The notes beneath the pieces are model-generated. The model was not told the DNA's origin, searched no databases, and worked only from the letters and a program-made list of their open reading frames with translations. Source: Oscillospiraceae bacterium (lineage in GTDB: Bacteria; Bacillota; Clostridia; Oscillospirales; Oscillospiraceae). From it: a stretch of DNA of 64,000 bases. A program made the translations under genes and the position numbers. Location: positions 1,902 to 65,901 of the forward strand of contig JAGAUY010000011.1 in assembly GCA_017620525.1 (NCBI GenBank), in the 5' to 3' direction. Of this stretch, positions 40,622 through 64,000 are shown piece after piece; position 1 is the first letter of the stretch; every line of letters begins with the position of its first letter.

Positions 40622-40663
40622 AAAAAGAGGAATCGCTACAAATCGTAAGCGATTCCTCTTTTT
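40622..40663. terminator. Bidirectional terminator between the tra operon and the cob operon
   Basis: aaaaagaggaatcgct...agcgattcctcttttt. Confidence 0.85.
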
Positions 40664-41202
40664 CATGGAATATACCTATAGTTCCGATTCGCAATGACAT
40701 AGCCACTGCCGTTCTTTGGCTGCCATTCATAGCGGTTCTTATTTTCGTCTGGGAACAGATGCTCCATTATAGCGGCAATGCAGCCGCCGTGGGTGATGAT
40801 GCAGGCGTCCTCCCGGATTTCGGAGAATGCAGCCAGCACACGCTGGCGCATCTGCACACCGCTTTCGCCATTGGGCGGTACATTGGCGTCGTTGTCACCA
40901 GTGAGCCATGCCTGATAAGCTGGGGTGTCTTTCAGTTCCTCGTAGCTGTGCATCTCAAAAATGCCGAAATCCACTTCCTGGAATCGAGGATCGATGTCAA
41001 AAGGCACATCGCCAAACAGAACACGCAAGGTTTCATTCGTCCGCTCCATACCGCTGGTGAGGAATCGGACATTTTTGATGTCATAATGGAACTGGTGCAG
41101 TTCTTCTCTGCCTGCATCGGACAGGGGCAAGTCGCTACTGCCGCAGTAGAGATGGCGCTCGTTGGCTTCCGTCTTACCGTGGCGAATTAAGTAGATGGTC
41201 AT
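40663..41202 (-). CDS. cobC: Histidine phosphatase, CobC-like
   Basis: LIRHGKT, ITHGG; cob operon context. Confidence 0.75.
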   Translation of the reverse strand: MTIYLIRHGKTEANERHLYCGSSDLPLSDAGREELHQFHYDIKNVRFLTSGMERTNETLRVLFGDVPFDIDPRFQEVDFGIFEMHSYEELKDTPAYQAWLTGDNDANVPPNGESGVQMRQRVLAAFSEIREDACIITHGGCIAAIMEHLFPDENKNRYEWQPKNGSGYVIANRNYRYIP

Positions 41203-41561
41203 TTCAATCTCTGCTCCAATCCGCAGAAAATTCGGCTGACCTGTGTGGCTTCCTTGCTCAGATATTGGGCCAGCCGCCCGGTGTTCTGCCGCCATGCCCG
41301 GTTTTCAGCACCCATGGGAACCACACCGCAGAAAATATCCTGTAAAATCAGAATGCTATTCTGCCATTCCTCACGGTGGGTCTGAAAATAGCCGATGGGG
41401 TTGGGATGGCCATAGGTAAATTCTTCGATTTTATAGATGCAACGCTTGGAAAAGTCAATCTCCCCACCGTTGCAGATGAACACATCCTCATCAGAGATAT
41501 TAAAAGCGGATTTTGCGTAGTCCAGTTTTCCCTGGTACGCTCCGCCGATAATCAGAATCAT
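41199..41561 (-). CDS. Short CobU-like P-loop protein
   Basis: MILIIGGAYQGK, DIFCGVVPM..RAWR..GRL, VSRIFCG. Confidence 0.75.
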   Translation of the reverse strand: MILIIGGAYQGKLDYAKSAFNISDEDVFICNGGEIDFSKRCIYKIEEFTYGHPNPIGYFQTHREEWQNSILILQDIFCGVVPMGAENRAWRQNTGRLAQYLSKEATQVSRIFCGLEQRLK

Positions 41562-41571
41562 ATTGGCCTCC

Positions 41572-42309
41572 TTAAATGAGCACATACACCGCCACGGCAC
41601 ACAGTTCGCCAATGGTCAGTGCGTAGCCAGAAATGTCGCCGTTCATGCCGTCCAGGGATTTGTAGGCACGCCGAAGTGCAAGTCCATAGCCAGCCAGGCA
41701 GCCAACGAGAACAAATCCATACTTTCTGCAAAGCAGGAAACCTGCGGCAAGGAAGATGCAGAGCATGACCGTCAGTGCTACTATGTGGGACTTTGGTTTC
41801 TTTTGGTCGGCATATTGGCTGGTGGACATGGGGTTCAGCCCGGTCACCGCCAAAGCGGAACAGCACCGACTTACTGCCGGAATAAAAAACAGGATCAGGT
41901 AGTTGGCATCATTGGGTGCAGATGCGAATACCGCAAACTGCGCCAGCATCAGCAGTACGATACCGATAACCGCAAAGCTGCCAACATGGGAATCCTTCAA
42001 AATCTCCCGGCGGCGCTCCAGGTCACGCCAGGACTTGACTGCATCGGTCACATCCATGTAGCCATCCAGATGGATGAACCCAGTGACGATGTAGGGATAG
42101 GCACTTAGAACCAGCCCTGTGACCAGCGCGGGCAAATCCAGCAGTCTGCACAGCCAAGCCAGCACCGCCCAGATCGCGCCGATCTCCAAACCCACAACAG
42201 GCAGGAACAGGAGCATTTTATCTTTGGCTTTCTCGTCCCAAACCTGCGGTGCCGGGATGGAACAGAACATACTCTGGCACATGATAAAAGCGTGGAGAAA
42301 TTTTTTCAT
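41572..42309 (-). CDS. cobS: Adenosylcobinamide-GDP ribazoletransferase
   Basis: TGFIHLDGYMD, ILKDSHVGSF, GMNGDISG. Confidence 0.93.
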   Translation of the reverse strand: MKKFLHAFIMCQSMFCSIPAPQVWDEKAKDKMLLFLPVVGLEIGAIWAVLAWLCRLLDLPALVTGLVLSAYPYIVTGFIHLDGYMDVTDAVKSWRDLERRREILKDSHVGSFAVIGIVLLMLAQFAVFASAPNDANYLILFFIPAVSRCCSALAVTGLNPMSTSQYADQKKPKSHIVALTVMLCIFLAAGFLLCRKYGFVLVGCLAGYGLALRRAYKSLDGMNGDISGYALTIGELCAVAVYVLI

Positions 42310-42851
42310 ATACATAAATCTCCCTTGTGGATAGTCAGTTGCCCTGCGGATACCTCGATAACCGCATCGCACACTGCGGCCAGTCTGCGGTCAATATCCG
42401 CAAGACACTTGCGGTACATTTCGGTGCTTTCGGAATACCGTTCCGCATCCGAATAAATGTAATCGCTGACGATCACCGCATGGCGGACGGTCTTTGCAAA
42501 CCTGATCAGTTCATCGGCACAGCGGTGAGCTGCTTCCATATCCATCTCATAGTTTTTCTCCACCGGGAACAGAGCATTTTGCAGCAGTGCCGTTGCACTG
42601 TCCACCAGGAAAGTGCCATCCTTATCGGCCACCTCCAGACAGGACATAACATTCTTACTGCACTCCACAGTCTCAAAGCCCATGCCGTCCCGGTCGGCAA
42701 TATGGCGGCGGATGCGGTCATCATCTTCCTCGCCGGTGGAGATCATAGTGGCTACATAGTAATGCTTTCCGCCCTTGGCGAGTGCCACGGTCAGGTCTTG
42801 TGCCAGGGTGGATTTTCCATTCTTGGCACCGCCGGAGATGAAATAAGTCAT
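42306..42851 (-). CDS. cobU: Adenosylcobinamide kinase/guanylyltransferase
   Basis: SGGAKNGKS, YVATM, RIRRH, LVDS. Confidence 0.88.
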   Translation of the reverse strand: MTYFISGGAKNGKSTLAQDLTVALAKGGKHYYVATMISTGEEDDDRIRRHIADRDGMGFETVECSKNVMSCLEVADKDGTFLVDSATALLQNALFPVEKNYEMDMEAAHRCADELIRFAKTVRHAVIVSDYIYSDAERYSESTEMYRKCLADIDRRLAAVCDAVIEVSAGQLTIHKGDLCI

Positions 42852-43936
42852 TTGGCTCCCTCCACAGTGAATTTGTCGCCCTCACGAATTTCATCCAGAT
42901 AGCCATCGTCGATGCCTGCCTGGTCAAAGGTCGCCATATCATTGATGATGGTACAGGCGGCATCCAAAATCTCGAATGCCAGCGGACATCCGCTTCCTTC
43001 GCCCAACCGCATTCCCAGCAGGAAAAGCGGGCTTAATTCCATGGCATCCATCGCCAGCTTGTAGCCAATTTCATAAGAAGCATGGCTGGGGATAAGATAG
43101 CCCTTCACATTGGGACACAGTTTGTAAGCGCATAGGGCGGCAACGGCGGAAATAAAACCGTCGATCACCACCGGACAGCGGGTAACTGCTGCACCGATGA
43201 ATGCGCCGCACATGGCGGCAATATCGAAGCCGCCCACCTTGGAGAGCACATCGATCACATCGTTTTTATCGGGCTGATTTACAGCGATAGCGGTTTTGAT
43301 AACTTCCTTTTTCTTTCGGAAGCTGTCGTCGGTGATACCGCCTCCCCGGCCTGTCACATCTTCCACGGATGCGTCCAGCAGAACGGACAGCACAGCGGAA
43401 GACGTGGTGGTGTTGCCGATACCCATTTCCCCGACGCCCAGCGCATCAGCATGGGTGGACTTCGCCAGCTCAATGCCTGTCAAGATAGCTTGGATTGCCT
43501 GCTCTCTCGTCATGGCAGGGCCGCTCACGATGTTCTGAGTTCCATAGGCGATCTTGCGGTTCAGCACCGCAGGCTCCTTGATATCCGCATTGACGCCCAC
43601 ATCACAAACGGTGATACCACATCCGAAGTGCTTGCACAGGGTAGAAGCGCCGGTCTTGTGCCGGGTCAGGTTGATGGTCTGCATCTGAGTCACGGATTGG
43701 GGCGCACTGGACACGCCCTCTGCCACCACGCCATTGTCGGCAGCGAATACCAGCAGATGCTTTTTCTCGATTTTGTTATGTACCAGCCCGGTGATGCCTG
43801 CCAGCTGGACGGACAAGTCCTCCAGCCGTCCCAGACTTCCGGGAGGTTTCGCAAGCTGGTCCTGCCGCTCACGGGCTTCATTCATAGCGAACTCGTCCAA
43901 AGGACGGATCGCATTGAGATATGCTTCTAAGTACAT
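42848..43936 (-). CDS. cobT: Nicotinate-nucleotide-dimethylbenzimidazole phosphoribosyltransferase
   Basis: KPPGSLGRLE, FAADNG, GEMGIGNTT, MRLGEGSG. Confidence 0.96.
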   Translation of the reverse strand: MYLEAYLNAIRPLDEFAMNEARERQDQLAKPPGSLGRLEDLSVQLAGITGLVHNKIEKKHLLVFAADNGVVAEGVSSAPQSVTQMQTINLTRHKTGASTLCKHFGCGITVCDVGVNADIKEPAVLNRKIAYGTQNIVSGPAMTREQAIQAILTGIELAKSTHADALGVGEMGIGNTTTSSAVLSVLLDASVEDVTGRGGGITDDSFRKKKEVIKTAIAVNQPDKNDVIDVLSKVGGFDIAAMCGAFIGAAVTRCPVVIDGFISAVAALCAYKLCPNVKGYLIPSHASYEIGYKLAMDAMELSPLFLLGMRLGEGSGCPLAFEILDAACTIINDMATFDQAGIDDGYLDEIREGDKFTVEGAK

Positions 43937-43940: not shown

Positions 43941-44207
43941 TCAGCCCTCTTTCTTCTTCGCCAGCTGCGCGATCTGGCTGTACTTTGAAAGCACATAATC
44001 ATAACCACCTGCGCTGTGAGGGATCAGGCAGTTGGAGCAATCCTTGATGCCATTTTCCGTATAAGCACAGTTGCCGCCGCACTTATCACCCAAAGCATAC
44101 AATGGGCAATAACAGAACAGGCAGTTGAAGTTGCCGTCATCCCTTACTTTGTGGCAAGGAAAATATTCGCAGCTACGGTTTTGAAAGAAGCTATGGGAGT
44201 TTTCCAT
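43941..44207 (-). CDS. Cysteine-rich small metal-binding protein
   Basis: CEYFPCH..FNCLFCYCPLY..CGG..KDCSNCLIPH. Confidence 0.85.
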   Translation of the reverse strand: MENSHSFFQNRSCEYFPCHKVRDDGNFNCLFCYCPLYALGDKCGGNCAYTENGIKDCSNCLIPHSAGGYDYVLSKYSQIAQLAKKKEG

Positions 44208-44216: not shown

Positions 44217-44966
44217 TCAAATCAGGTTATTTTCTACCATCCATTCGATAGAAGGTGCGTCCTTCATCAGCTCCATGGTAAAGGTTGCATTCGGGCAGAT
44301 TTCTTCTGCCCGAAGAAGAAATTCTTTCATGGGGATTGTGCCATCGTTCAGGGCATTATGCTGATCTCGCGTTCCATCGTTGTTATGGACGTGGAAATGG
44401 CTGATGTAAGGCGCACAGATTTCCAGCCACTCCATGACAGAGATATTGGAATAGGCATTTACATGGCCAATGTCCAGACACATCTTTAGCCTCGGATCAT
44501 CCACGCCCTTCACAATATCCAGAAGCCAGGCAGGATCGGTTTCCAGCACATTTTCCAGCACGATCTGAATACCGGGATCTTCCTCCAGAAACTCCTTCCA
44601 GAACTTGATCGATTCGGCAGTGTACCACACCGGGAAATAGATCCATGGGTTAAAGCCGCCGTGGATGATGACCTTGGTGCTGCCGTAGCGTTTCGCAAGG
44701 TCGATTGCCTGCCAGTAGCGGGAAGCGGCCAGTTCTCTGGCCTTGGGATCAATGGCACAGGGGAACAGCTCGTTGTAGGGTGCGTGGAGAACGCTGCGGG
44801 CAATGCCATCCAGCTTCTTTTTGACCACACCGTCCACACCGGCGAATTTCTCATCCATGTTCCAAGCGGTGCAGTATTCCGCAATCTCAATGCCGCAGCC
44901 GTATTCCTTTGTAACGCGCACCGCGTCGGTGGCAATGGTAGAAAGGTAGATTTTTTCTCTGTTCAA
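44217..44966 (-). CDS. AP-endonuclease-2/TIM-barrel metalloenzyme, candidate CbiR-type cobamide remodelling hydrolase
   Basis: LHAP, IHGG, LENV, CLDIGH, HFHVHNNDG..DQH and ME metal ligands; TTG start overlaps the ecfT stop, GAGGTG RBS. Confidence 0.7.
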   Translation of the reverse strand: MNREKIYLSTIATDAVRVTKEYGCGIEIAEYCTAWNMDEKFAGVDGVVKKKLDGIARSVLHAPYNELFPCAIDPKARELAASRYWQAIDLAKRYGSTKVIIHGGFNPWIYFPVWYTAESIKFWKEFLEEDPGIQIVLENVLETDPAWLLDIVKGVDDPRLKMCLDIGHVNAYSNISVMEWLEICAPYISHFHVHNNDGTRDQHNALNDGTIPMKEFLLRAEEICPNATFTMELMKDAPSIEWMVENNLI

Positions 44967-45850
44967 AGCTGACACCTCGTTTTCTTGAATCGAAACTCCG
45001 TCCACAGTTCCATTATCAGCGGCAGCAAACACAAAACTGCGAAACCCATATAAAACACAAAGGAAATGGGGGTAATAGGATTCATGACGATTTTGGGATC
45101 ATACCAAATGACAGTCTGGCCCAGTAAATATCCCATAAGCGCCACCGTCAGGCAGGCAAACAAGCTAATCACCAGGCTCCGGTCCCGGTTGTCAAAGCGG
45201 TAAATGGAAAAGGCGGTGCGGCCTTTCAGCGCATATCCCCTGCTCCGCATAGAATCGGAACTCGTAGTGAAAGATTCCAACAACCATGTCAGGAGCATGG
45301 AGAAAATGCAGACAGCGTTGACAATCCTCTGAAAAACATTGCCTTGGTTGACGCCCCGTCCTACTGCTCTCCGGGCTGTGGATATCTTCTTTGCCTGGGC
45401 TTTTAGTCTTGGCACAGTTCGCAGAATAATAGAGAGGAACAGCGACAGTTTTGGACTGACCCGGCCAAAGAGATATACCACCTTATCAGCGGTAAAAACG
45501 GAAAACACGCAGCTCAGCCACATGAAAACCGTTGCCACAATCATGCCCAAGGTCACACCGTACAGCAAAGATTCCACGGTCATGTTGTTGCCGATGAAAT
45601 TCTGCCGCATGACGGTGACGCCAAAGTGGTTGTAGCTGGAGTAATACATGGCAAAAATAACGATCAGCGGGATCAGGCAAAGGTTGAAGATTACCGCCCG
45701 CTTTCCGTTGCGCTTTACGGAATAGGCAAAGGCGCTGAGATAGGAGATCAGCAAGAAAACAGGCTGCTTAAAAAGGATCGCTGCGGCGATGGTGCTGACG
45801 AAATAGAACAGGTTGATGGCAGGATGGTAACTCTCAAACCCCATCGTCAT
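44963..45850 (-). CDS. ECF transporter T component
   Basis: HPAINL.YF, RTVPR, SMRSRGY..RTAFS. Confidence 0.88.
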   Translation of the reverse strand: MTMGFESYHPAINLFYFVSTIAAAILFKQPVFLLISYLSAFAYSVKRNGKRAVIFNLCLIPLIVIFAMYYSSYNHFGVTVMRQNFIGNNMTVESLLYGVTLGMIVATVFMWLSCVFSVFTADKVVYLFGRVSPKLSLFLSIILRTVPRLKAQAKKISTARRAVGRGVNQGNVFQRIVNAVCIFSMLLTWLLESFTTSSDSMRSRGYALKGRTAFSIYRFDNRDRSLVISLFACLTVALMGYLLGQTVIWYDPKIVMNPITPISFVFYMGFAVLCLLPLIMELWTEFRFKKTRCQL

Positions 45851-46541
45851 GCGCCTCCATCATGCCGTACTTCACCTTCAGCCGGTCCAGCTTCTCCAGA
45901 AGGGGCTTGCCCAGCAGGAGCAGCACCAGGAAGGTGCAGATGCCCTGGCTCACATTCACGCTGAAGCCAGAAATATACAGCGGCCACGCCGTCCCCCAGG
46001 AGATGGCAGGCAGAGTCAGAAATACACTGCTGGTATCCAGCACCGGGCCGACGATCAGCACTACACTGATGAATCCGAAAACAGCCATGACCAGGGGCTT
46101 CCGGGGAAGCCGTTTTTTCGCAAATGAGAAGCCCGCGATCAGGCCGGCGACACCGTAACCCAGCATCTGCCAGGGAGTGTAGGGACCCTGGCCGTAGAAA
46201 AAGTTACTGGCAAAGGCAGAGATGGCGCCAACCAGGAAACCGGTCTCCGCCCCAAAGGCGATACCGGAGATCATAATAACGGCGAAGATGGCCTTGAAAT
46301 TGGGAATGGGAATGGCGGCACGGGCCGCAACAGCCAGCGCGCACATCACCGCAATGGTCACCAACTCCCGCGCCTGGGGCTTTCGCCCCTCAAAGGCCAT
46401 AAAGAATGGGATCAGCAATTCGATCACAATGAGTGTTCCAGTGAAATAATAGGAACGGCCCGGCAAAATCGTGCCAAAATACAAAGTTGCGGGAATCAGT
46501 GCAAACAGAACAATGAGCGTAGCAATGTTAGATTTCTTCAT
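45834..46541 (-). CDS. ECF transporter S component (CbrT-like)
   Basis: ARELV..A, PNFK, SNFFYGQGPYTPWQM. Confidence 0.85.
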   Translation of the reverse strand: MKKSNIATLIVLFALIPATLYFGTILPGRSYYFTGTLIVIELLIPFFMAFEGRKPQARELVTIAVMCALAVAARAAIPIPNFKAIFAVIMISGIAFGAETGFLVGAISAFASNFFYGQGPYTPWQMLGYGVAGLIAGFSFAKKRLPRKPLVMAVFGFISVVLIVGPVLDTSSVFLTLPAISWGTAWPLYISGFSVNVSQGICTFLVLLLLGKPLLEKLDRLKVKYGMMEAHDDGV

Positions 46542-46545: not shown

Positions 46546-48201
46546 TCAGCCCTCCTTGTTCTGCTTATAGAGGTCAATCATATTCTCCGCCGTGACCGCA
46601 TTCTGAAACACATGGCGGCTCATACGGTTGGCGGCAGTGGTATAGAAGCTGTTGGAGCCAAAGAAGCGGCGGGGCGTATCGGTAGTCAGGATCTGACCAT
46701 CGAAGAACATGGAAACCATGTCCGCGTACTTTGCGCAGAACTCCACGTCATGGGACACCATCACGATGGTGATGCCCTGGATCTTGAGCTGGGCAAGGAT
46801 GGTGGCAAAGGTTTCCTTGAAGAAGCTGTCGATGCCCTTGGTGGGCTCGTCCAGCAGTAAAAGTTTCGGTTCCGTCAGCAGGACTTTTGCCAGGGCGGCA
46901 CGCTGCTGTTCACCGCCGGACAGATCGTAAGGGTGGTTGTCCAGCAGAGCGGTCACCTGACAAAGCTCCGCAACCTCAGCAATCTTCTGTTCATTCCTAC
47001 ACATCTCGGTCAAATCCTCCCGGACGGTTTTCTTAACGAACAGGCTCTTGGGATCCTGTGGCAGCATGGACAGGCAATTCTTGAACAGTTCCGCAGACTT
47101 ATATTTCTCCACCCGTTTCCCGAAAACCTTTACCTTACCCCGGTAGGGCTTGCAGATACCACAGATGGCTTTCAGGGTGGTGGATTTTCCGGCACCGTTG
47201 CCGCCTACGATGGCATACAAACTGCCCGCAGGCACCTCAGCGCTGACGCCTCGAAGGATATCGGGGCTGTCCTTTTCGTACCGGAACCACAGCTCTTTCA
47301 TAGAAAGAGCGGGGTTTTCAATTTCGTCCGCCAACGGCTCTGCCGGGAAGGTGGATACCTTGGGCGCTTCCGGGAATGCCTTGCTCAGCCAGTTGCGGCC
47401 CTCCCGGACGGTCAGGGGGCAGTCGCCCTCGCCCTGGGCCCCGTAGAACACCCGGACCGGGGTGGGCATGGCGGCGAACATATCATTGCCCTGCTCATAC
47501 AGGAGCTTGCCGATATTCCGGGGCGTGTCGTCCGCAATGACCCGGCCGCTGTCCATGACGATGGCACGGTCCGCATAGGGGAAGATATCCTCCATACGAT
47601 GCTCTGTGATGATGACAGTAGTGCCCAACTCAATATTGATTTTCCGCACGGTATTCAGAAAATCCGATGCCGCGATTGGGTCAAGCTGACTGGTGGGTTC
47701 ATCCAGGATCAGCACCTCCGGCTGCATGGCCATGATGGACGCCAGATTCAGAAGCTGTTTCTGTCCACCGGACAGGTTCGCCACATCCCGATGGAACCAG
47801 TCCTGGATGCCGAAATAGCAGGCCATTTCCGCAACACGGGCGCGCATGGTTTTCTGATCAGTTCCCAGGCTCTCCAGGCCAAAGGCCAGCTCATGCCAGA
47901 CCTTATCCGTGACGATCTGATCATCCGGGTTCTGCATCACATATCCGATTTTAGCGGACTGATCCCGCTGGCTCACCTTGTCCATGGGAATGTCGTTGAA
48001 CAGGATCTCTCCGCTGTGCTTGCCATGGGGTGCCAGCACGGATTTCAGATGCCGCAGAAGCGTGGTCTTGCCGCTGCCGGATTTGCCGCAGAGGACAACG
48101 TATTCGCCCTTTTCGATTGACAGTGTCACATCTTCCAGAGAGTGCTTCCCCTTTGCGGTGGGATAGGAAAAGGTCAGATTTTTGATCTCGAAATGTGCCA
48201 T
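46546..48201 (-). CDS. ECF transporter fused double ATPase
   Basis: Two ABC domains (GKSGSGKT and GGNGAGKS, LSGG, DEPT). Confidence 0.92.
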   Translation of the reverse strand: MAHFEIKNLTFSYPTAKGKHSLEDVTLSIEKGEYVVLCGKSGSGKTTLLRHLKSVLAPHGKHSGEILFNDIPMDKVSQRDQSAKIGYVMQNPDDQIVTDKVWHELAFGLESLGTDQKTMRARVAEMACYFGIQDWFHRDVANLSGGQKQLLNLASIMAMQPEVLILDEPTSQLDPIAASDFLNTVRKINIELGTTVIITEHRMEDIFPYADRAIVMDSGRVIADDTPRNIGKLLYEQGNDMFAAMPTPVRVFYGAQGEGDCPLTVREGRNWLSKAFPEAPKVSTFPAEPLADEIENPALSMKELWFRYEKDSPDILRGVSAEVPAGSLYAIVGGNGAGKSTTLKAICGICKPYRGKVKVFGKRVEKYKSAELFKNCLSMLPQDPKSLFVKKTVREDLTEMCRNEQKIAEVAELCQVTALLDNHPYDLSGGEQQRAALAKVLLTEPKLLLLDEPTKGIDSFFKETFATILAQLKIQGITIVMVSHDVEFCAKYADMVSMFFDGQILTTDTPRRFFGSNSFYTTAANRMSRHVFQNAVTAENMIDLYKQNKEG

Positions 48202-49648: not shown

Positions 49649-49662
49649 CAGCATGACCTCCC

Positions 49663-49888: not shown

Positions 49889-49910
49889 TATTCATTTCAT
49901 CATACCTGAT

Positions 49911-57945: not shown

Positions 57946-59082
57946 TTACAGATCAATTTGTGATAATTGCTCCTGATAGTGCTCCGGGTCAAACATGACC
58001 GCACTATCCAGAGATGTTTTTCCGCACAGCAGCATCGTTACATGTCCAAACCGTTGCAGCTCCATAACCTCACTCTGGGGTTCCTCCGCAATGTAGACCA
58101 TGTGTGCGCACAGTGGCGCTCCACCGGTCTGCAGTAGTAAGCCTGCTCCGCTGACGCTTTCCTTGACGCCTGTTGCTCGCATCAGTCTGGGAATGATGCC
58201 CACCAGCTCATCCATATCCCGGATTTCGTGGAGGATGCACAGATTTCTGTCCGTATCATTCCAGCCGATGGTAAACTGGATACCGCTATCCAACAGGCTC
58301 CGGCACAGAGAAACAACCGTTTCCGCCTGGGCATCGATGATTTCCCGGTTCCCTGACTCTCCCGTCCGCTCCCAGAACACCAACACATTTCTGGTAATGG
58401 GCAACGCAGGATCACGGACGATCAGCTTGTCAAATTTACCGGTCAATTTCCAGTGAATCTGCCGTGGGCTGTCTCCGGGAACATATTCCCGAATCTGATA
58501 TGTTTCCGTCAAATCGGAACCGGGCCTGTCCTGAGAATATACATCGCTTTCGTCCATGCTGTGAGGGCTTGGGATCAATGTGATGTTCGGCTCAAAGGTA
58601 TCCGGCTGAACTGTTATATGCGTCACTGCGCTGCACTTACAGCGTATTCCGATCAATGCGAAGCAGTCATACAGCACGGCCTGCTGAACGGATACACGCA
58701 ACCGTCCACAGTAGTCACTGCCAGTTGTCAAAGCTGCTTCACGCCCCTTTTTCGGTGGCATCCAGGTCATCATATGGATCGTTTCACATTCCCGGTTCAG
58801 CTGATTTTGCGCCAGCAGTTTGCAGCGGACACGCATCGCGGGAAAGATCGTAGGGTTGTCAAGGGCAACCGAAAAGCTGCCGCTTTCACCCTTTCGGATG
58901 TTGGGAGCCGCATTCAGACTGACACTGAGATTTTTTCTTATATACAGGTTCACCGGGATACTGCCCAGTGGGATCAGCACAAGCAATACAGCCAATGCCA
59001 ATGCCATGCTGCTGCCAAAATACCCGAAGAAACCTAAACAAATCCCTTCCAGTACCAGCCAGCATATTTTCATTGCGATCAT
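57946..59082 (-). CDS. DUF58 domain protein
   Basis: IREYVPGDSPRQIHWKLTGK..LIVR; follows moxR. Confidence 0.88.
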   Translation of the reverse strand: MIAMKICWLVLEGICLGFFGYFGSSMALALAVLLVLIPLGSIPVNLYIRKNLSVSLNAAPNIRKGESGSFSVALDNPTIFPAMRVRCKLLAQNQLNRECETIHMMTWMPPKKGREAALTTGSDYCGRLRVSVQQAVLYDCFALIGIRCKCSAVTHITVQPDTFEPNITLIPSPHSMDESDVYSQDRPGSDLTETYQIREYVPGDSPRQIHWKLTGKFDKLIVRDPALPITRNVLVFWERTGESGNREIIDAQAETVVSLCRSLLDSGIQFTIGWNDTDRNLCILHEIRDMDELVGIIPRLMRATGVKESVSGAGLLLQTGGAPLCAHMVYIAEEPQSEVMELQRFGHVTMLLCGKTSLDSAVMFDPEHYQEQLSQIDL

Positions 59083-59100: not shown

Positions 59101-60048
59101 TTATTTTTTCACAACCGGCATTTTCACAGAGTCCAGAACGCTGCGGATAATATTCTCAGGCCGTTCCTCCATCATTCTGGCCTTCGTTGCGAGCACCAAA
59201 CGGTGGGCACAGACATCAGGGAAGACTGACGCTACATCCTCCGGGATCACAAAATCACGGCCATTCAGATAGGCATAGGCTTTTGCCATACGGCAAACCG
59301 CCAGCGCGCCGCGGGGGCTGATGCCCAACTGCACCATGGGGTGTTCTCTGGTTGCCACAGTAAGTCTGGTTACATACTCATACACAGTGTCTTTGATTTC
59401 TACCGCTCCGGTTTCCTTGACCAGTTCCTGAAGCTGGGCAATATTCACCACAGGTGCGATCTTATTCAACGGATTCTCTGTATGTCGGTCCCGAAGAATG
59501 CTGACCTGGCTTTGAAAATCCGGATAACCCATGCTGATTTTGATCATAAAGCGATCCAGCTGAGAATTGGGCAGCATTTGGGTGCCGGCAGAGCCAATAG
59601 GATTCTGGGTAGCCAGGACCACGAAGGGCTTCGGCAGATCATAGGTCTGCCCATCCACCGTCACATGGAGTTCTTCCATCGCTTCCAGCAATGCGGACTG
59701 GGTCTTGCTGGAGGTACGGTTGATCTCGTCCGCCAGCAGCAGGTTCGTCATAACCGCACCCGGCTTATAGGCGAACCCGTCGCTCTCCTTATCATAGACC
59801 GAGTAGCCGATGATGTCGGAGGGCACCGTATCGGAGGTGAACTGAACACGGCGGGTGTCCAGTCCCAGCACCTTCGCGAAGGTCATAGCTGTCGTCGTTT
59901 TACCGACGCCGGGAACATCCTCCATCAGTACATGACCGCCTGCCAACACAGCCATCAATATCTTCTCGACAATCTCATTTTTACCTACAACGACCTTTTC
60001 AATTTCTTGCAGGATTTCGTTAATCTTTTGATTCATATTCTCCTCCAA
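59101..60048 (-). CDS. MoxR family AAA+ ATPase
   Basis: GHVLMEDVPGVGKT, LADEINR, QSALLEAMEE, ATQNP, SPRG. Confidence 0.95.
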   Translation of the reverse strand: MEENMNQKINEILQEIEKVVVGKNEIVEKILMAVLAGGHVLMEDVPGVGKTTTAMTFAKVLGLDTRRVQFTSDTVPSDIIGYSVYDKESDGFAYKPGAVMTNLLLADEINRTSSKTQSALLEAMEELHVTVDGQTYDLPKPFVVLATQNPIGSAGTQMLPNSQLDRFMIKISMGYPDFQSQVSILRDRHTENPLNKIAPVVNIAQLQELVKETGAVEIKDTVYEYVTRLTVATREHPMVQLGISPRGALAVCRMAKAYAYLNGRDFVIPEDVASVFPDVCAHRLVLATKARMMEERPENIIRSVLDSVKMPVVKK

Positions 60049-60063: not shown

Positions 60064-63000
60064 TCATTCTTCTGTATCCGGAGATTCCTCTTCCGGGGGT
60101 TCTGTTACAGGTGGGTCTGTTTCAGGCGGATCGGTAACGGGAGGATCCGTTTCCGGGGGTTCTGTCTCAGGCGGATCGGTAACAGGAGGATCCGTTTCCG
60201 GGGGTTCTGTCTCAGGCGGCGTATAGTTCGGGTCCTGCGCTCCACAATGGATACAGGATCCATCCGTATAAGAATGGTACTCCTCGAAAGTTCCCTCCCA
60301 GATCAGATCCAGACCACATCCATCGCAATGGTATACGATCTTCTTGCAAGTGGCTTCCTTCATTGTCAGCGTCCCGCTGCACCCCACATCCCAATCGTGG
60401 AGAACACCGCATACACTGCATTCGTAGTCCTCCCAACCTTCATTGTAAACATACTTGTGCTGGCCCCGGTTCAGTTCTTCGCCGCAGGTGGAGCACTTCT
60501 GATAATGCTCCGAATCTGTGTAATTCCATCTGCTGTTCAGTGTATGACCCTTGGCAGGGCTTTCTTCTTCTCTGACCATTTCACATACGGTGCAGCAAAC
60601 CGTCCTGGTGCCGGGCTCGGTACAGGTTGCTGTGTTGCTGCCCTCAACTTCCCTCCAGCTGTGTGTCTCAGAAATGCCGCAGGAGGAGCAGGTATGGGAT
60701 TCATCGGAGTTATCCCAGACATGCGCCTGTGGATCGCCAATGGTCGTCTTACAGTCGTCACAGAACTGGATATGGGTACCGTCTTCCAGATCCATGTAGG
60801 TCAGATGCTCGTGGGCACAATCTTCCACCAGACCACAGCAGCGGCAGACATAGCGAATGGATCCATCCGTATTCTCCACCTGTTCCATCTGATGGTTGAT
60901 GTAGTAACTGCCATTTACCGCAGTCACGCAATAACCGATGGTATTGCCATAACCGGCAGTACCGCCGCCAACATCCCAGCCATAAGCCAGCGTGTAACGC
61001 AGGGTCAGCACATCGCCATCCTGCAAGTAGTATTGGGACATAGACTGTCCGGGATAGTAGGTGCCATCCAGAGAGAACAGCCAGCCGGAACCGCTGGTAT
61101 AATCAAATTCGCTGAATGTACCGCTCCCACCGCTGCTCTTATTCAGTCCGTTGCGGTAAATGCACCGCCACAGCGTTGCAAGGCCCGTTCCCTCTCCAAA
61201 GTAGCTGTCAATAGCTTGCAGGATTTCTTCCTCGGAAGAACCATACTGGGACCAACTGCTGCCGCTCAGAGCATTCGCGCTGTATCCGGGGGACAAGCTT
61301 TGCAGATAGAATCCGCTGTCCAGGGTTCCGGAATACCGTCCGCTCCATCCCAAAGAATTGGACGCAGCGCCAAAGGGTTCTCCGGTATCCATACCCATAA
61401 CAGCCTTAGCAACCGCATAGGAGATCGGCTCATCCGCCAAGACTTCATAGGATACGGAATCCACAACACCCAGGCCAAGCACGGACAGATCAATGTAGAT
61501 CGTTGCATTACCGGTCTTCTGGCCTGCCTGGTTGCGCTGTCCTTGCAGTGTCAATGTCAGCTCACCGTAGTTACCATAGGCATCTTCCGCGTAGATATAA
61601 AGCGTATGTGTATTGGTGTCTCCCGTTTCCGGGTTGCCCGGATACAGAGAATATTCCGATGCAGAACCGGAGGAACTAGTGTAGGATATTTCCTCACCAT
61701 CCAATTTCACGATCAGTTTTGTATCCGTACCGTTGGCAGGAATATAACTGATCACATTTCCGTCCGCATCCTCACTCCAGGCATTGACACTCAGGTTCGT
61801 ATTCGTTTCATTGATAACGACCTGTCCATCGGTGAGATTTGTCGTGATCTTTACCGTATTCTCACCCCTGTGCTTGTAGGGGATATTGATTTTGAATTCG
61901 TACACAGTTCCAGCGCTGTCTTCCGCTGTAATGGTAAAGGCATTTTCACCCGTCTTACCATTTTTCAGAAGCATCTGAATATCATCAGCATAAGCCAGCG
62001 AAAGCGCTCTTCCGCTTCCGGACTGATAGCAGGTTACGGAACTGATTTCAAGATCGGAGCTATCTGTACCTACGATAGACATCGCATAGGAAAGGATGCC
62101 GTCCATCAGCTGATCGTCATAGATCGCTTCCGCGGTTTTGGACTTTCCATTCTCGCAAGTGACTGTTCGGTCCACCTGCTCCCCGTTATCATTCACGGTA
62201 TAACGCATTTCCAAATACACATCCATAGAGTAGTTCAGCACGACTTCAAATGTCATCTGCTGACCGCCCGCAAGGACAACGACTGTAATGGTATAAGCGT
62301 TTGATGTATAGCCATCCGGTAACGCCATGGTCAAAGCGCCGCTCTGCTCCAGGTTGCCGCCACCGGATCCCTCCGATGTGTAAGAAATATTCAGGATCCG
62401 TGCACTTTCGCTGTCAGCGCCAGCAAGTGCCAGCTCATACTTCACAGCACCGGCGGAGAGCTGATTATTCTTCACATCCGTAGAAACACGGCTGCCCGGT
62501 TGACAGGTCAGGGTTCGGCGGGTCGTACCTTTTTCCAGCCATGTGAAAGAAAGCTCAATGTCCAAAGTATCTGCAAAGAGGATGGTAAAATGATAGCGGA
62601 CTGTCTGGTAACTGTCATCCTCATCCGGTACCTGAACTTCAAAAGTCAGATAGTATGTTTCTTCCTCGGAACCATTTGCTGTCTGGAAAATCAGCGAACC
62701 ACCATCCGGATTCAGCATACCGCTACCTCCGGAAGCCGTGGTATACTCCGCCTTTACGATCTGTGCATCTTCTGCCAACGCACCAATCAGCTTGGGAGTA
62801 TAAGCAAAAACATTTTCCGTCAGCTCATTGCTCTCTATCGTCCTGGCTGCAGAACCATCTGCGGCGCAGGTAATCGTGGCAGTAGAATCACCATTTTTCC
62901 TCCAACCGAGTTCCAGCTCCACATCCAGCGTGTAACAGCAATGAAGTACATAAGAAAAAGTAATGTCCTGCTCCACCAGATTTCCCTGAGAATCCCGCTT

Positions 63001-63777
63001 TTCGAGATGGGCATTGATTTGGAACGTGTAATCACGCTCTGCATTTGCATTGGGCAGCTCGATTGTTGTTTCGCCGCTTGCGGCAACTTCAGCGTATTGT
63101 CCATCTCCCTCTTTCAGATAAACGGAAATGATTTCAACATGATCCGCTTCCGTGCCAGTCAAGGAGAAGGAATATTTCAGTTCGTTGTTTACGAGCTGCG
63201 CAGTGTTCATCGTCTTGGACACCGCCTCGGACGGTCCGCATACAATGGTTTTCGGCTGAGTTCCGTACTTATACCAGGTCATGACCATCGCCAGATCCAG
63301 GTCAGATTCCTCGCCGCCTTCTTCACCCTGATCTCCGTCTTCCTGACCCTCATCGCCATCGCCGGTATCCGGGTCATCATTTTCAGAGTCTTCCGGCTGA
63401 GTTTCTTCAGGCGTTGTTTCATCCGGCTCTGTTTGCTCCGGTTTAGACTCTTCGGGTTCCGTTTCCTCTGGCTGCGTTGTCTCTGTTTCTTCCGGCTCTG
63501 TCTCCTCCGGCTCGGTTTCCTCTGGTTCCGTTTCGTCCGGTTCCGTTGGCTCCGTCGAATCATCATTTGAGTTCTCGCCTAGATTGGGATCTTCTTTGTT
63601 CTCGCCCATTTGAAGTTCCGTGATCCCTCTGATCTCTTCATCCTCCAGAGGATTCTGTGGCTTTACGGTTGTCAGTGCCATTCCAGAATAGAATAGCCCC
63701 AGCAAAATAGCCATTGTCAAAAGCAGACAAATGCCCACCTTTACTTTTTTGCTATGTAACAGCGAATTCCAATCCAT
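60064..63777 (-). CDS. N-terminally anchored surface protein: acidic stalk, 4 tandem ~115-aa repeats, DUF4430-like domain, His/Cys-rich repeats, Pro/Thr tail
   Basis: N-terminal TM; EPEET repeats; EFDY.SGSGWLFSLDG.YPG..LQDGDVLTLRYT; multiple H..CxxCG; PPETDPPVTD tail. Confidence 0.8.
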   Translation of the reverse strand: MDWNSLLHSKKVKVGICLLLTMAILLGLFYSGMALTTVKPQNPLEDEEIRGITELQMGENKEDPNLGENSNDDSTEPTEPDETEPEETEPEETEPEETETTQPEETEPEESKPEQTEPDETTPEETQPEDSENDDPDTGDGDEGQEDGDQGEEGGEESDLDLAMVMTWYKYGTQPKTIVCGPSEAVSKTMNTAQLVNNELKYSFSLTGTEADHVEIISVYLKEGDGQYAEVAASGETTIELPNANAERDYTFQINAHLEKRDSQGNLVEQDITFSYVLHCCYTLDVELELGWRKNGDSTATITCAADGSAARTIESNELTENVFAYTPKLIGALAEDAQIVKAEYTTASGGSGMLNPDGGSLIFQTANGSEEETYYLTFEVQVPDEDDSYQTVRYHFTILFADTLDIELSFTWLEKGTTRRTLTCQPGSRVSTDVKNNQLSAGAVKYELALAGADSESARILNISYTSEGSGGGNLEQSGALTMALPDGYTSNAYTITVVVLAGGQQMTFEVVLNYSMDVYLEMRYTVNDNGEQVDRTVTCENGKSKTAEAIYDDQLMDGILSYAMSIVGTDSSDLEISSVTCYQSGSGRALSLAYADDIQMLLKNGKTGENAFTITAEDSAGTVYEFKINIPYKHRGENTVKITTNLTDGQVVINETNTNLSVNAWSEDADGNVISYIPANGTDTKLIVKLDGEEISYTSSSGSASEYSLYPGNPETGDTNTHTLYIYAEDAYGNYGELTLTLQGQRNQAGQKTGNATIYIDLSVLGLGVVDSVSYEVLADEPISYAVAKAVMGMDTGEPFGAASNSLGWSGRYSGTLDSGFYLQSLSPGYSANALSGSSWSQYGSSEEEILQAIDSYFGEGTGLATLWRCIYRNGLNKSSGGSGTFSEFDYTSGSGWLFSLDGTYYPGQSMSQYYLQDGDVLTLRYTLAYGWDVGGGTAGYGNTIGYCVTAVNGSYYINHQMEQVENTDGSIRYVCRCCGLVEDCAHEHLTYMDLEDGTHIQFCDDCKTTIGDPQAHVWDNSDESHTCSSCGISETHSWREVEGSNTATCTEPGTRTVCCTVCEMVREEESPAKGHTLNSRWNYTDSEHYQKCSTCGEELNRGQHKYVYNEGWEDYECSVCGVLHDWDVGCSGTLTMKEATCKKIVYHCDGCGLDLIWEGTFEEYHSYTDGSCIHCGAQDPNYTPPETEPPETDPPVTDPPETEPPETDPPVTDPPETDPPVTEPPEEESPDTEE
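60085..60220 (-). repeat. Coding 15-nt-period tandem repeat (PPETE/PPETD/PPVTD)
   Basis: Near-exact duplications such as ggatccgtttccgggggttctgtctcaggcgg. Confidence 0.85.
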
Positions 63778-63885
63778 AGTATAGTCCTCTCAAAGCAAAT
63801 TGATTGTGCCAGCTTTCCTTTGCAGACTTATATCAAGTCAACAAAGGAAAACTCACAATTCCGAAGCAAAACTGTGTTCTGAATG

Positions 63886-63914
63886 AAGGCGGGGCATGGG
63901 CTATGCCCCGCCTT
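63886..63914. terminator. Stem-loop between the dockerin gene and the 1237-aa gene
   Basis: aaggcggggcat-gggct-atgccccgcctt; the T-tract is on the plus strand only. Confidence 0.55.
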
Positions 63915-63952
63915 ATTTTTTACGAAGCAATAATCCTCGTAATCAAGTCAAG

Positions 63953-64000
63953 TTATCCCTCCACTGGAAAAGCATCGATTGTTCCATAGTAGTAGGAAAC
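63953..64000 (-). CDS. C-terminal end of a second dockerin-bearing protein (enters from the right edge)
   Basis: Translates VSYYYGTIDAFPVEG*, nearly identical to the VSYYYGTIDTFPAES* end of 51080-55624. Confidence 0.8.
   Translation of the reverse strand, partial: VSYYYGTIDAFPVEG

Follow-up and report, generated by a model that had tools for sequence, protein, structure and literature searches.

Genes for large surface proteins precede genes for an ECF importer and cofactor remodelling in a 64,000-nt stretch of DNA (the window; contig C7 of genome G000, a 68%-complete MAG of an uncultured gut Oscillospiraceae bacterium), raising the question of whether they form, as the initial annotation proposed, one system that captures, imports and remodels corrinoids. 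The co-oriented string is real, with every gene on the minus strand in the order claimed (Table 1), and most of its domain calls were upheld by Pfam or NCBIfam; the corrections concern the riboswitch, which Rfam does not detect, and the DUF4430 of the 1237-aa protein, which Pfam does not call. We find that the window probably represents the downstream two-thirds of a corrinoid (vitamin B12) scavenging regulon of ~45 kb, in which capture, import and remodelling would be combined.

Table 1. Features of the window, by position
Feature	Position	Strand	Evidence or remark
tRNA-Met gene 3' half, 45 nt, att-like	27418..27462	+	First of three direct repeats
ICE-type genes convergent on the island	28039..40577	+	ParA, ParB, TED/SpaA adhesin, VirB4-like ATPase, sortase, CHAP hydrolase
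CobC-type phosphatase	40663..41205	-	His_Phos_1 114 bits
120-aa CobU C-terminus paralogue	41199..41561	-	PF02283 35 bits, profile positions 112-167
CobS	41572..42312	-	PF02654 144 bits
CobU	42306..42851	-	PF02283 91 bits
CobT, lower-ligand phosphoribosyltransferase	42848..43936	-	PF02277 436 bits
Cys-rich small protein, zf-like	43941..44207	-	PF04071 106 bits; kept in G025
CbiR-like AP-endonuclease-2 fold protein	44217..44966	-	PF01261 (AP_endonuc_2) 78 bits
EcfT paralogue 2	44963..45850	-	28% identical to paralogue 1
ECF S component, CbrT-like	45834..46541	-	PF07155 59 bits
Fused EcfA-EcfA' ATPase	46546..48201	-	TIGR04520 356 bits, TIGR04521 332 bits, each above cut-off
EcfT paralogue 1	48174..49076	-	Profile match to EcfT 5d3m_D/6fnp
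Membrane-anchored DUF4430 (transcobalamin beta-like) protein	49070..49654	-	PF14478 73 bits
Terminator hairpin and U-run	49671..49693	-	Directly before RBS; likely riboswitch expression platform
Divergent cobalamin-riboswitch aptamer	49721..49890	-	Leader homology; no Rfam match in this copy
Intrinsic terminator ending surface-protein unit	49962..49985	-	Followed by promoter-like TTGAAC-17-TAAACT
(alpha/alpha)6-toroid lipoprotein	49994..51043	-	Lipobox VTAC; AF2 pLDDT 88
1514-aa secreted propeller-dockerin protein	51080..55624	-	Cadherin-like, PQQ/BamB-type beta-propeller, Big_3, C-terminal type-I Dockerin_1
Polytopic transglutaminase-like protein, dead catalytic triad	55640..57931	-	Transglut_core 44 bits
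DUF58 (vWA-like) membrane protein	57946..59082	-	PF01882 24.4 bits (cut-off 23.4)
MoxR-type AAA+ ATPase	59101..60048	-	AAA_3 188 bits, AAA_lid_2 91 bits
1237-aa membrane-anchored giant surface protein	60064..63777	-	DUF4430-type domain at ~aa 760-940
GC-rich hairpin between dockerin and 1237-aa genes	63886..63914	.	No U-tail on transcribed (minus) strand
1236-aa dockerin protein, 3' end (dockerin tail)	63953..64000	-	Remainder at G000:C77:1-3486

Importer and remodelling genes

The ecfT-ecfAA'-S-ecfT module was identified correctly. Neither ecfT gene has a Pfam match, and a profile built from both paralogues retrieves EcfT chains from the PDB (E 3.7e-13), while the fused ATPase is recognized by NCBIfam and the S component by PF07155. 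The top PDB match of the S component is 6fnp_A (E 3e-7), from the ECF-CbrT complex (6FNP; PMC5997447); because its identity to CbrT is low, we call it CbrT-like rather than a CbrT orthologue. EcfT paralogue 2 also occurs in G088 and is missing from G025, G121, G168 and G301; the small DUF4430 gene ahead of the module holds the equivalent position in G168 and G301. The CbiR-like protein scores 41.5 bits against the NCBIfam CbiR model (NF041277), well under its cut-off of 105, and is therefore a distant CbiR relative of putative activity. Its gene lies between ECF and cobT genes in G025 and G301 as well, and both genomes keep the 120-aa CobU paralogue at 59-81% identity.

The cobalamin riboswitch that the initial annotation placed before these genes escapes Rfam, which finds none throughout the window, even at E<=10 on 351 nt. 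The leader is nevertheless 74-79% identical to leaders in four other genera, and homologues there score 35.4, 30.6 and 26.2 bits on RF00174, the 35.4 bits of G025 exceeding the gathering cut-off; since a 79%-identical homologue from another genus passes Rfam, we regard the window copy as a divergent cobalamin riboswitch. Compensatory changes affect 10 of 35 predicted pairs, our own model (R1) scores 163 bits on this leader, and variants akin to it lie ahead of the gene for a BtuF-like binding protein in G023 and of one for a giant DUF4430 protein in G074. The terminator and promoter-like site between the toroid gene and the leader form a boundary between surface and ECF/cob genes, and the window accordingly contains at least two transcription units. 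Because this terminator and the hairpin after the dockerin gene interrupt the string, transcription of the giant-to-toroid genes by read-through from a riboswitch farther upstream is putative.

Surface proteins and the adjoining contig

The 1237-aa protein comprises an N-terminal TM segment, an acidic linker, tandem beta repeats, the DUF4430-type domain, a Cys-rich region and a Pro/Thr/Glu tail. Its designation as a giant DUF4430 surface protein stands, although Pfam calls no DUF4430 in it: hhalign pairs it with DUF4430 proteins (97.1% probability, E 5e-11, 51 columns), BLASTP matches it to a DUF4430 protein, and the homologue in the congener G168 carries DUF4430 above the Pfam cut-off. Homologues 58-79% identical occur in G110, G201, G301 and G302. 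The DUF58 gene adjoins moxR in every relative compared, and the transglutaminase, as first described, is inactive, its triad residues all replaced (Cys to Ser, His to Gln, Asp to Asn); the catalytic Cys is missing from all five aligned homologues. For the 1514-aa protein, homologues (38-82% identity) hold the equivalent position in five other genomes, and no relation was found between its N-terminus and DUF4430.

The reading of the last product of this unit as an alpha-barrel lipoprotein is borne out by its lipobox and by an (alpha/alpha)6 barrel in the AF2 model; in Pfam and NCBIfam, prenyltransferase/SQHop repeats fall slightly under the cut-off. The predicted fold (VIA) matches terpene cyclases at Z 22 and intrinsic factor, transcobalamin and haptocorrin at Z ~18, and with terpene cyclases outscoring intrinsic factor and transcobalamin the match of the model is generic. 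Homologues fused to DUF4430 (P0201, P0231, P0261; 59-66% identity) are known, and the lipoprotein is a candidate for the alpha half of a transcobalamin-like binder encoded as two proteins.

The dockerin gene cut off at the window's edge continues on contig C77, whose start shares an exact and unique 141-nt overlap with the end of C7. The joined ORF encodes, in frame, a 1236-aa protein with signal peptide and dockerin, and single contigs of G301 and G302 show the same succession of cohesin, dockerin protein and giant protein. A search of this adjacent sequence for a cohesin gene and a second riboswitch found both. Upstream, and in the same orientation, it encodes two additional dockerin proteins and a cohesin anchor of the sortase type whose C-terminus resembles a sorting signal, together with a canonical cobalamin riboswitch. 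Four places on C77 match RF00174, three at 53.7, 54.1 and 38.9 bits and one, below threshold, at 24.8, and they stand ahead of the dockerin/cohesin string, a sortase gene and the gene for a DUF4430x2 lipoprotein. The dockerins are type-I (31-41 bits) and the cohesin module scores 42-45 bits; the whole assembly encodes four dockerins and two cohesins, of which three and one, respectively, belong to the island.

Residues 577-910 of the 1236-aa protein are homologous to the N-domain of the dockerin proteins, a 290-aa family that Pfam does not recognize. Its model is confident (pLDDT 90), and its top four matches among 48,161 chains are haptocorrin (Z 9.8), transcobalamin (9.3), intrinsic factor (9.3) and the transcobalamin beta domain (9.0), with a DUF4430 structure fifth (8.4); the domain is thus predicted to share its fold with the beta domain by which haptocorrin, transcobalamin and intrinsic factor bind B12. 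RF00174 lies within 1.5 kb upstream of N-domain homologues at 4 of 10 other loci, and the wider region around three of the other six contains riboswitches at two more (G195, G201).

Recurrence and alternative readings

The giant-MoxR-DUF58-transglutaminase-propeller(-toroid) string is present in six genomes (the window genome, G301, G302, G110, G201 and G168), in five of which it is headed by cobalamin riboswitches; alongside the surface string, G302 encodes an additional adaptor cohesin protein bearing its own dockerin, and it has no RF00174 match genome-wide. G301 has no riboswitch between the toroid gene and the DUF4430-ECF-cob genes. In G168 a 93-bit riboswitch is directly followed by DUF4430, EcfT, EcfAA', S, giant-like, toroid, moxR, DUF58, transglutaminase and propeller-dockerin genes, which places the ECF genes inside the string. 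Riboswitch linkage, N-domain fold, recurrence in six genomes and this arrangement in the congener make corrinoid capture, import and remodelling a well-supported predicted role; the original interpretation is likewise supported by the adjoining cohesin and riboswitches, by the co-conservation of the surface genes and by the transcobalamin-beta-like domain of the dockerin proteins. CbiD was sought and not found in G000, G301, G110 and G201; G168 has it, so carriers are not all auxotrophs.

The strongest alternative, which we nonetheless consider unlikely, is that the surface complex is B12-repressed and does not itself bind corrinoids, B12 being handled only by the small DUF4430 proteins and the ECF importer; under B12 scarcity it might, for instance, attach the cell to host material or to neighbours that produce B12, or liberate cofactors by lysis or proteolysis. 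Adhesin-type modules (Ig-like, cadherin-like, propeller) dominate the big proteins, the riboswitch-led string of G195 starts with an NlpC/P60-CHAP dockerin protein, and no link between the MoxR trio and ligand transfer is known. Yet a transcobalamin-beta/DUF4430-type module is present in the dockerin proteins and in the giant, and it is this module, not the adhesin-like parts, that recurs behind riboswitches in other genera.

That the binders and importer take up haem or another tetrapyrrole appears decidedly improbable. An ECF-like operon of Lactobacillus sakei with split transcobalamin-like alpha and beta proteins (lsa1836-1840) is reported to aid haem uptake (bioRxiv 10.1101/864751), but in five of the six genomes compared here the genes follow cobalamin riboswitches, the S component resembles CbrT most closely, and cobT/U/S/C and a CbiR-like gene share the string.

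The island may also be mobile. Further copies of the tRNA-Met half-repeat lie at C77:24768-24812, just past an integrase gene, and at C77:42739-42788; because these 45-nt repeats and the integrase flank the island, its suggested carriage as ICE cargo is plausible in this genome, but only here, as it is not conserved in the syntenic relative G301, whose island contig has none of the att-like repeats and shows no ICE-type genes in the 7.8 kb examined downstream of cobC. Chance juxtaposition of an unrelated giant/MoxR/dockerin envelope operon and a B12 salvage operon as mobile-element cargo, to which the terminator and promoter between the window's two units, the ICE genes between att-like repeats and the riboswitch-less G302 would lend themselves, is very improbable and largely refuted by the association in three different gene orders across at least three genera, with ECF genes embedded in the G168 string, and by its persistence on the repeat-free G301 contig.

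Relation to known systems and proposed mechanism

The core of the corrinoid-scavenging reading is already an in silico prediction of 2007, when Burroughs, Balaji, Iyer and Aravind (PMC1796856) predicted extracellular transcobalamin-like SLBB (DUF4430) proteins in low-GC Gram-positives, associated with alpha/alpha toroids and CbiO/CbiQ operons, for B12 scavenging and surface complexes; the claim that no such Firmicute system had been described missed both this prediction and L. sakei lsa1836-1840 (bioRxiv 10.1101/864751). The island shares with the 2007 system secreted or wall-anchored SLBB/DUF4430 proteins in several paralogues per operon, toroid fusion or pairing, beta-propeller fusions, ECF-type ATPase and T genes, and hosts without B12 synthesis. 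That paper does not mention cohesin or dockerin ('dockerin' occurs 0 times), MoxR/DUF58/transglutaminase, riboswitch control or remodelling genes, and the island's N-domain family is a further difference. The L. sakei operon likewise has separate secreted alpha-toroid and beta (DUF4430) proteins beside S, A-A' and T genes, without riboswitch, cohesin-dockerin, MoxR trio or cob genes. The combination of riboswitch, cohesin-dockerin, transcobalamin-like, importer and remodelling parts had been only partly predicted.

Like the ECF-CbrT B12 importer of Lactobacillus delbrueckii (Santos et al. 2018, PMC5997447), whose EcfT the island's EcfT profile matches, the module has EcfT, two ATPase domains and an S component; it differs in being dedicated, with fused A-A' and two divergent EcfT paralogues, and in following a DUF4430 protein within a large surface-protein regulon. 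CbiR of Akkermansia muciniphila is a cobamide-remodelling phosphodiesterase, and most of its homologues are encoded near cobamide lower-ligand attachment genes and a transporter (Mok et al. 2020, PMC7733943), a setting that the CbiR-like gene shares along with membership of the AP endonuclease 2 superfamily.

MoxR-DUF58-TgpA-like transglutaminase trios have the identical three-gene order with 14-18 nt gaps; the island's differs in the clade-wide loss of the catalytic Cys, the window copy lacking the full triad, and in being embedded among corrinoid-linked surface proteins. With cellulosomes and amylosomes the island has in common type-I dockerins, a cohesin module and an anchor with a sorting-signal-like C-terminus, whereas it lacks carbohydrate-active enzymes, has a single cohesin per anchor, is under B12 riboswitches and carries transcobalamin-like modules as cargo. 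In Bacteroides, riboswitch-controlled surface accessory proteins of the BtuB-BtuG/BtuH systems, including a beta-propeller, capture corrinoids ahead of the transporter; they are Gram-negative outer-membrane lipoproteins on a TonB-dependent receptor, and the window propeller matches only BamB-type propellers.

Taken as a corrinoid-scavenging regulon, the island would respond to corrinoid scarcity through cobalamin riboswitches that permit transcription of several units. One would supply a sortase and another a double-DUF4430 lipoprotein; the third, long unit would provide two dockerin proteins with transcobalamin-beta-like domains, the cohesin anchor with its sortase-type sorting signal, the membrane-anchored giant, the MoxR/DUF58/dead-transglutaminase membrane trio, the dockerin-bearing propeller protein and the toroid lipoprotein; and the fourth, behind the divergent riboswitch, the DUF4430 protein, the ECF-CbrT-like importer, the CbiR-like hydrolase and CobT/U/S/C. 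Wall-anchored cohesin would receive the dockerin proteins, displaying putative corrinoid-binding modules on the cell surface, and captured corrinoids would pass, possibly via the toroid and DUF4430 pair, to the ECF S component for import. Once inside, they may undergo cleavage to cobinamide phosphate, to which the bacterium's preferred lower ligand would then be attached.

Gene content of the island

All open reading frames of the island that fall in the window lie on the minus strand, in the order listed by the initial annotation, and most of the domains assigned there were confirmed by Pfam or NCBIfam; both ecfT genes and the DUF4430 module of the 1237-aa giant surface protein proved invisible to Pfam and were recovered by profiles. 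Pfam places the MoxR (AAA_3, 188 bits), DUF58 (24.4 bits against a cut-off of 23.4) and transglutaminase (core, 44 bits) families in that order, as a trio tightly embedded in the string with gaps of 14–18 nt. The transglutaminase-like protein had been called inactive, and in the window copy the catalytic Cys, His and Asp are indeed replaced by Ser, Gln and Asn; none of the five aligned homologues retains the Cys. The neighbouring 1514-aa protein combines Cadherin-like, PQQ/BamB-type propeller, Big_3 and Dockerin_1 modules (Pfam/NCBIfam); by sequence, its propeller matches BamB only. Its N-terminus was also considered as another DUF4430, a reading abandoned because hhalign against DUF4430 gave a probability of 0.6%. 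The lipoprotein that follows, hereafter the toroid, has weak prenyltransferase/squalene-cyclase repeats in Pfam.

Behind the leader lie the importer and remodelling genes. Neither ecfT product matches Pfam CbiQ, and a PDB sequence search with the EcfT proteins returned nothing; a profile of seven homologues matches the PDB EcfT chains 5d3m_D/6fnp (E 3.7e-13). The fused EcfA-A' (551 aa) passes both TIGR04520 (355.8 bits, cut-off 315) and TIGR04521 (332.3 bits, cut-off 330), and the S component passes PF07155 and S-component Pfam families, with its best PDB match, weak at E 3e-7, to 6fnp_A (CbrT), 6FNP being the ECF-CbrT B12 importer (PMC5997447). The two EcfT proteins of the module are divergent paralogues (28% identical); such a pair is also found in genome G088, and a single EcfT in G025, G121, G168 and G301. 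The AP_endonuc_2 protein (PF01261, 78.5 bits) fails the CbiR cut-off, its best NCBIfam match, NF041277, reaching 41.5 bits against 105; the position of this CbiR-like gene, between S/EcfT and cobT, is kept in G025 and G301, and a CbiR-like gene beside cobamide lower-ligand genes is a context described in PMC7733943. The Cys-rich protein matches PF04071 at 106 bits, and the CobT, CobU, CobS and CobC calls are upheld by Pfam/NCBIfam. A further 120-aa protein matches the C-terminal third of CobU only, as a paralogue of that end; it is kept as a gene of its own between cobS and cobC in G025 and G301 (59–81% identity) and is therefore no decayed fragment. All island components are single-copy in the assembly.

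Cohesin, sortase and riboswitches on the upstream contig

The window is C7:1902-65901 of an assembly of 103 contigs that is 68% complete. Contig C7 ends in the same 141 nt with which contig C77 begins, a sequence found nowhere else in the assembly. Joining the two contigs yields an uninterrupted 1236-aa reading frame at the window edge, with a signal peptide and a dockerin tail, and the join is corroborated by two other MAGs in which cohesin and dockerin genes directly precede the giant homologue on single contigs. Adjacent sequence had been named as the place to look for a cohesin gene and a second riboswitch, and C77 holds both. Upstream of the 1236-aa frame and on the same strand, it encodes a cohesin-bearing protein of 543 aa, which also has about ten Cys-rich repeats and whose C-terminus (SAQTGD, a hydrophobic stretch and KKRK; SVQTGD in G301) looks like a sorting signal, together with a 1377-aa Big_2 and dockerin protein whose gene has an RF00174 match of 53.7 bits 126 nt before it. 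No minus-strand terminators were predicted in the ~100-nt gaps among the upstream dockerin and cohesin genes. Other RF00174 matches on C77 lie ahead of a sortase gene (54.1 bits), ahead of a small ORF (38.9 bits) and, below threshold at 24.8 bits, immediately ahead of the gene for a lipoprotein that carries two DUF4430 domains.

The assembly has four dockerins and two cohesins, of which three dockerins (Dockerin_1 at 35.7, 31.4 and 39.6 bits; 72–79% mutual identity) and one cohesin (42–45 bits on the joined contig) belong to the island. The remaining dockerin and cohesin lie side by side elsewhere, the dockerin ending a 973-aa ORF that is followed by a 276-aa cohesin ORF, with no RF00174 match at that locus. 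Also among the cobalamin riboswitches, on C77 and in G201, are genes for DUF2284 'metal-binding' proteins, which adjoin the lipoprotein with two DUF4430 domains in both genomes; in the window's genome, the two DUF2284 genes are separated by genes for a MatE exporter and a LysR regulator.

DUF4430 proteins, an unannotated domain and the toroid

The 194-aa protein first behind the leader is a clear DUF4430 member (PF14478, 73 bits). For the giant, the DUF4430 claimed initially is missed by Pfam on the window copy but found by BLASTP, in which residues ~887–938 match DUF4430 proteins, and by hhalign (97.1% probability, E 5e-11), the latter over the C-terminal 51 columns only; its shorter homologue in the congener G168 scores 24.2 bits on Pfam's DUF4430, barely above cut-off.

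A second candidate module came from the dockerin proteins on C77, where the first ~300 residues of the 1377-aa protein recur at residues 577–910 of the 1236-aa one. Pfam has no model for this N-terminal domain (N-domain). Its family, ~290 aa in length, comprises at least 523 clusters at 50% identity; of 30 short members, 19 consist of the N-domain and a dockerin, with nothing more. Among ten loci from other genera, four have RF00174 within 1.5 kb upstream of the N-domain homologue, and wider sequence for three of the other six revealed riboswitches at two more (G195 and G201). The AF2 model of the domain is confident (pLDDT 90, pTM 0.89); Foldseek against the PDB gave nothing significant. An exhaustive VIA-align wide comparison with 48,161 PDB representatives ranked haptocorrin first (Z 9.8, rmsd 2.3, 94 aligned), followed by bovine transcobalamin (9.3), intrinsic factor (9.3), the isolated transcobalamin beta domain (9.0) and the DUF4430 structure 3u7z from Ruminococcus gnavus (8.4), with generic beta-grasp folds (MoaD/SAMP) below these at Z ≤7. 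The fold joins a beta-grasp like that of transcobalamin beta, interrupted by a large insert, to an Ig-like sandwich in the C-terminal half; the modelled N-domain looks like a B12-binding module.

The toroid model (pLDDT 88) is a generic (alpha/alpha)6 barrel, scoring Z 22 against terpene cyclases, 19–20 against epimerases, and 18.2, 17.9 and 17.8 against intrinsic factor, transcobalamin and haptocorrin. With terpene cyclases outscoring all three B12 carriers, the fold search lends no specificity to the idea of the toroid as one part of a 'split transcobalamin'. PDB sequence searches returned only terpene-cyclase repeats for the toroid and noise for the DUF4430 protein, and the ESM Atlas yielded only a weak DUF4430 lead (0.87). 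A candidate link of the toroid to B12 is supported instead by close homologues (59–66% identity) fused to DUF4430, by its kept position, and by the toroid and SLBB architecture discussed in PMC1796856.

A divergent riboswitch in the window

The initial annotation placed a cobalamin riboswitch ahead of the DUF4430 and ECF genes, a call on which Rfam is silent for the window copy: searches for RF00174 were negative across the window at the gathering cut-off (31.5 bits), across 24 kb at E≤1, and across the 351 nt between the genes at E≤10. The region nevertheless has the anatomy of a regulatory leader, in which a terminator closes the upstream unit and is followed by a promoter-like site, ~200 nt of leader, a second terminator and, directly after it, a ribosome-binding site. 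When 300 genomes of the family were searched by BLAST, leaders homologous to it turned up in four other genera, and these do score on RF00174: that of G025, 79% identical to the window leader, reaches 35.4 bits, above the gathering cut-off, and those of G121 and G074 reach 30.6 and 26.2 bits. Leaders of the five genera share long invariant blocks, including ATCCCAGCGGTACCAAGCCGCCGTAGA and the B12-box-like GAGCCGGAATAC, and 10 of 35 RNAalifold pairs show compensatory changes, although from five sequences only; the minimum-free-energy fold is undistinctive (z -1.3). Because homologous leaders score on RF00174, and because of the invariant blocks and compensatory changes, we regard the window riboswitch as real and, from comparative sequence evidence, as a divergent cobalamin-riboswitch sub-type.

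A covariance model of this sub-type (R1) detected it in 8 of 151 family genomes. On Rfam's model the sub-type lies at the cut-off or beneath it, and the window copy escapes detection altogether. The genes behind the sub-type are those for import and remodelling, for a giant DUF4430 protein (>2343 aa, in G074) or for a BtuF-like binding protein (in G023). Its ligand selectivity may differ from that of canonical copies.

Recurrence in other genomes

The string of giant, MoxR, DUF58, dead transglutaminase and propeller-dockerin protein recurs in five other genomes, accompanied by the toroid wherever the locus sequence examined extends far enough: G301, an Oscillospiraceae MAG from roe deer colon (55–88% identity); G302, a MAG labelled Lachnospiraceae; G110 and G201, two species of one other genus; and the congener G168, in rearranged form. 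Relatives of the locus span at least three further genera of the family and two more MAGs. In G301, a riboswitch lies directly ahead of the first dockerin gene, and none was found from the toroid to the DUF4430-ECF-CbiR-like-cob genes; in G110 and G201, three tandem cobalamin riboswitch aptamers head the string. G168 has one riboswitch ahead of a 3107-aa mosaic surface protein and a second, at 93 bits, followed by DUF4430, EcfT, EcfAA', S, a giant-like gene, toroid, moxR, DUF58, transglutaminase and propeller-dockerin genes. The gene orders of G168 and G301 bear out the proposed co-conservation of the surface genes with the ECF genes and riboswitches. RF00174 was not found in the genome of G302, where two cohesin genes precede the giant gene, one dockerin-ended (an adaptor) and the other TM-anchored, a two-tier arrangement.

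Two further genomes hold parts of the system. G195 has a riboswitch followed by genes for an NlpC/P60-dockerin protein, a 2303-aa dockerin protein and a cohesin protein, and G025 has the variant riboswitch followed by EcfT, AA', S, CbiR-like, zf and cobTUSU'C genes, together with a strong divergent riboswitch ahead of a DUF4430 protein. CbiD, a marker of corrin ring synthesis, was found in G168 and not in G301, G110, G201 or the window's genome, the last being weak evidence because that assembly is only 68% complete; B12-binding-domain proteins are present in the relatives.

Possible integrative-element carriage

The island had been proposed as cargo of an integrative and conjugative element. 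Convergent on cobC are genes for ParA, ParB, a TED/SpaA adhesin, a VirB4-like ATPase, a sortase and a CHAP hydrolase, and C77 beyond the island encodes HTH regulators, MazF, a tyrosine integrase and, further on, a MobL relaxase. A 45-nt 3' half of tRNA-Met in the window has direct repeats at two sites on C77, the first ~190 nt after the integrase gene; because of this first pair, the island lies inside a ~62-kb repeat-bounded interval with an integrase at one end. Against conjugative carriage, this interval contains no relaxase, MobL lying only in the next repeat interval, and the arrangement is not kept in G301, whose syntenic island sits on a 137-kb contig without the repeat and with the 7.8 kb examined downstream of cobC free of ICE-type genes. 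No tRNA genes were found in the window or on C77, and an intact tRNA-Met is absent from the assembled contigs. The three half copies of tRNA-Met point to a single tRNA gene at which at least two integrative elements are stacked. Integrative-element carriage is plausible in this genome; it is no property of the system itself.

Coordinates of features in the window, on the joined contig C77 and at loci fetched from this and other genomes (L numbers)
Feature	Sequence	Position	Strand
ECF/cob genes	window	40663-49654	minus
120-aa CobU-like gene	window	41199-41561	minus
EcfT paralogues	window	44963-45850; 48174-49076	minus
194-aa DUF4430 protein	window	49070-49654	minus
Terminator after leader	window	49671-49693	
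Riboswitch sub-type	window	49721-49890	
Riboswitch sub-type	L011	1497-1660	
Riboswitch sub-type	L012	1479-1653	
Riboswitch sub-type	L013	1483-1650	
Riboswitch sub-type	L014	1469-1635	
Terminator of upstream unit	window	49962-49985	
Toroid lipoprotein	window	49994-51043	minus
Propeller-dockerin protein (1514 aa)	window	51080-55624	minus
Giant surface protein	window	60064-63777	minus
tRNA-Met 3' half	window	27418-27462	
tRNA-Met 3' half, first and second repeat	C77	24768-24812; 42739-42788	
N-domain, 1377-aa protein	C77 (L007)	8496-9383	minus
N-domain, 1236-aa protein	C77 (L007)	757-1758	minus
DUF2284 genes	C77 (L007)	11576-12163; 14574-14972	
DUF2284 gene	L074 (G201)	1044-1604	
Other dockerin and cohesin	L006 (G000:C3)	23010-23736	
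Tandem riboswitch aptamers	L087 (G110:C3)	334-1721	
Tandem riboswitch aptamers	L074 (G201)	1697-3084	
Two cohesin genes	L076 (G302)	8001-9584	

Discussion

The well-studied surface capture proteins BtuG and BtuH are those of Bacteroides; to our knowledge, corrinoid competition among Gram-positive gut anaerobes is largely unexplained, and we know of no functional solution for the widespread MoxR/DUF58/transglutaminase trio. Taken together, our results make it likely that the locus is a B12-repressed corrinoid scavenging regulon. In such a regulon, dockerin proteins bearing transcobalamin-beta-like modules would be held at the surface by a cohesin protein that sortase anchors, with membrane-anchored DUF4430 proteins and the toroid lipoprotein nearer the membrane; an ECF-CbrT-like importer would take the cofactor into the cell, where the CbiR-like enzyme and CobT/U/S/C would carry out salvage or lower-ligand exchange. 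We infer, in this scheme, the binding, hand-over and remodelling of corrinoids. The tight embedding of the trio suggests that it may act in complex assembly or ATP-driven ligand release.

Three other explanations bear on the same genes. The surface complex might be B12-repressed and yet have an adhesive or lytic role, or its ligand might be haem rather than a corrinoid, for which a report on L. sakei (bioRxiv 10.1101/864751) can be cited. Mere juxtaposition of surface and B12 genes is unlikely, since the same parts are kept behind B12 riboswitches in three different gene orders.

Within the corrinoid scavenging reading, a bolder version, which we hold to be improbable, is that MoxR, DUF58 and the dead transglutaminase form an ATP-driven device that either strips corrinoids from the very tightly binding transcobalamin-like surface proteins, or from host or competitor carriers, for delivery to the S component, or assembles the cohesin-dockerin complex, while the divergent riboswitch may discriminate among cobamides, leaving the remodelling genes on when only the 'wrong' one is present. 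If it were true, the widespread trio would gain its first defined client.

The initial annotation knew of no described Firmicute system of this composition, a statement that holds in part. Burroughs et al. (2007) predicted Gram-positive B12 scavengers comprising surface transcobalamin-like SLBB proteins, toroids, propellers and CbiO/CbiQ (PMC1796856), and the locus is a variant of this already predicted kind; neither 'dockerin' nor 'MoxR' occurs in that paper, and a full-text literature search brought up no publication that connects cobalamin riboswitches with dockerin/cohesin or with MoxR. What the present analysis adds is the joining of two contigs, a sortase under riboswitch control, a riboswitch variant that Rfam does not see, a fold assigned to an unannotated domain of 290 aa, and the att-like repeats.

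These findings suggest that Oscillospiraceae mount transcobalamin-like binders on the wall via cellulosome-type connectors, regulate them by B12 riboswitches, and couple them to a dedicated ECF importer and lower-ligand remodelling. The locus offers a possible non-carbohydrate role for cohesin-dockerin pairs and a defined ligand context for the MoxR/DUF58/pseudo-transglutaminase trio, and it points to an unannotated 290-aa family as a candidate B12-binding module and to a riboswitch variant that Rfam misses.
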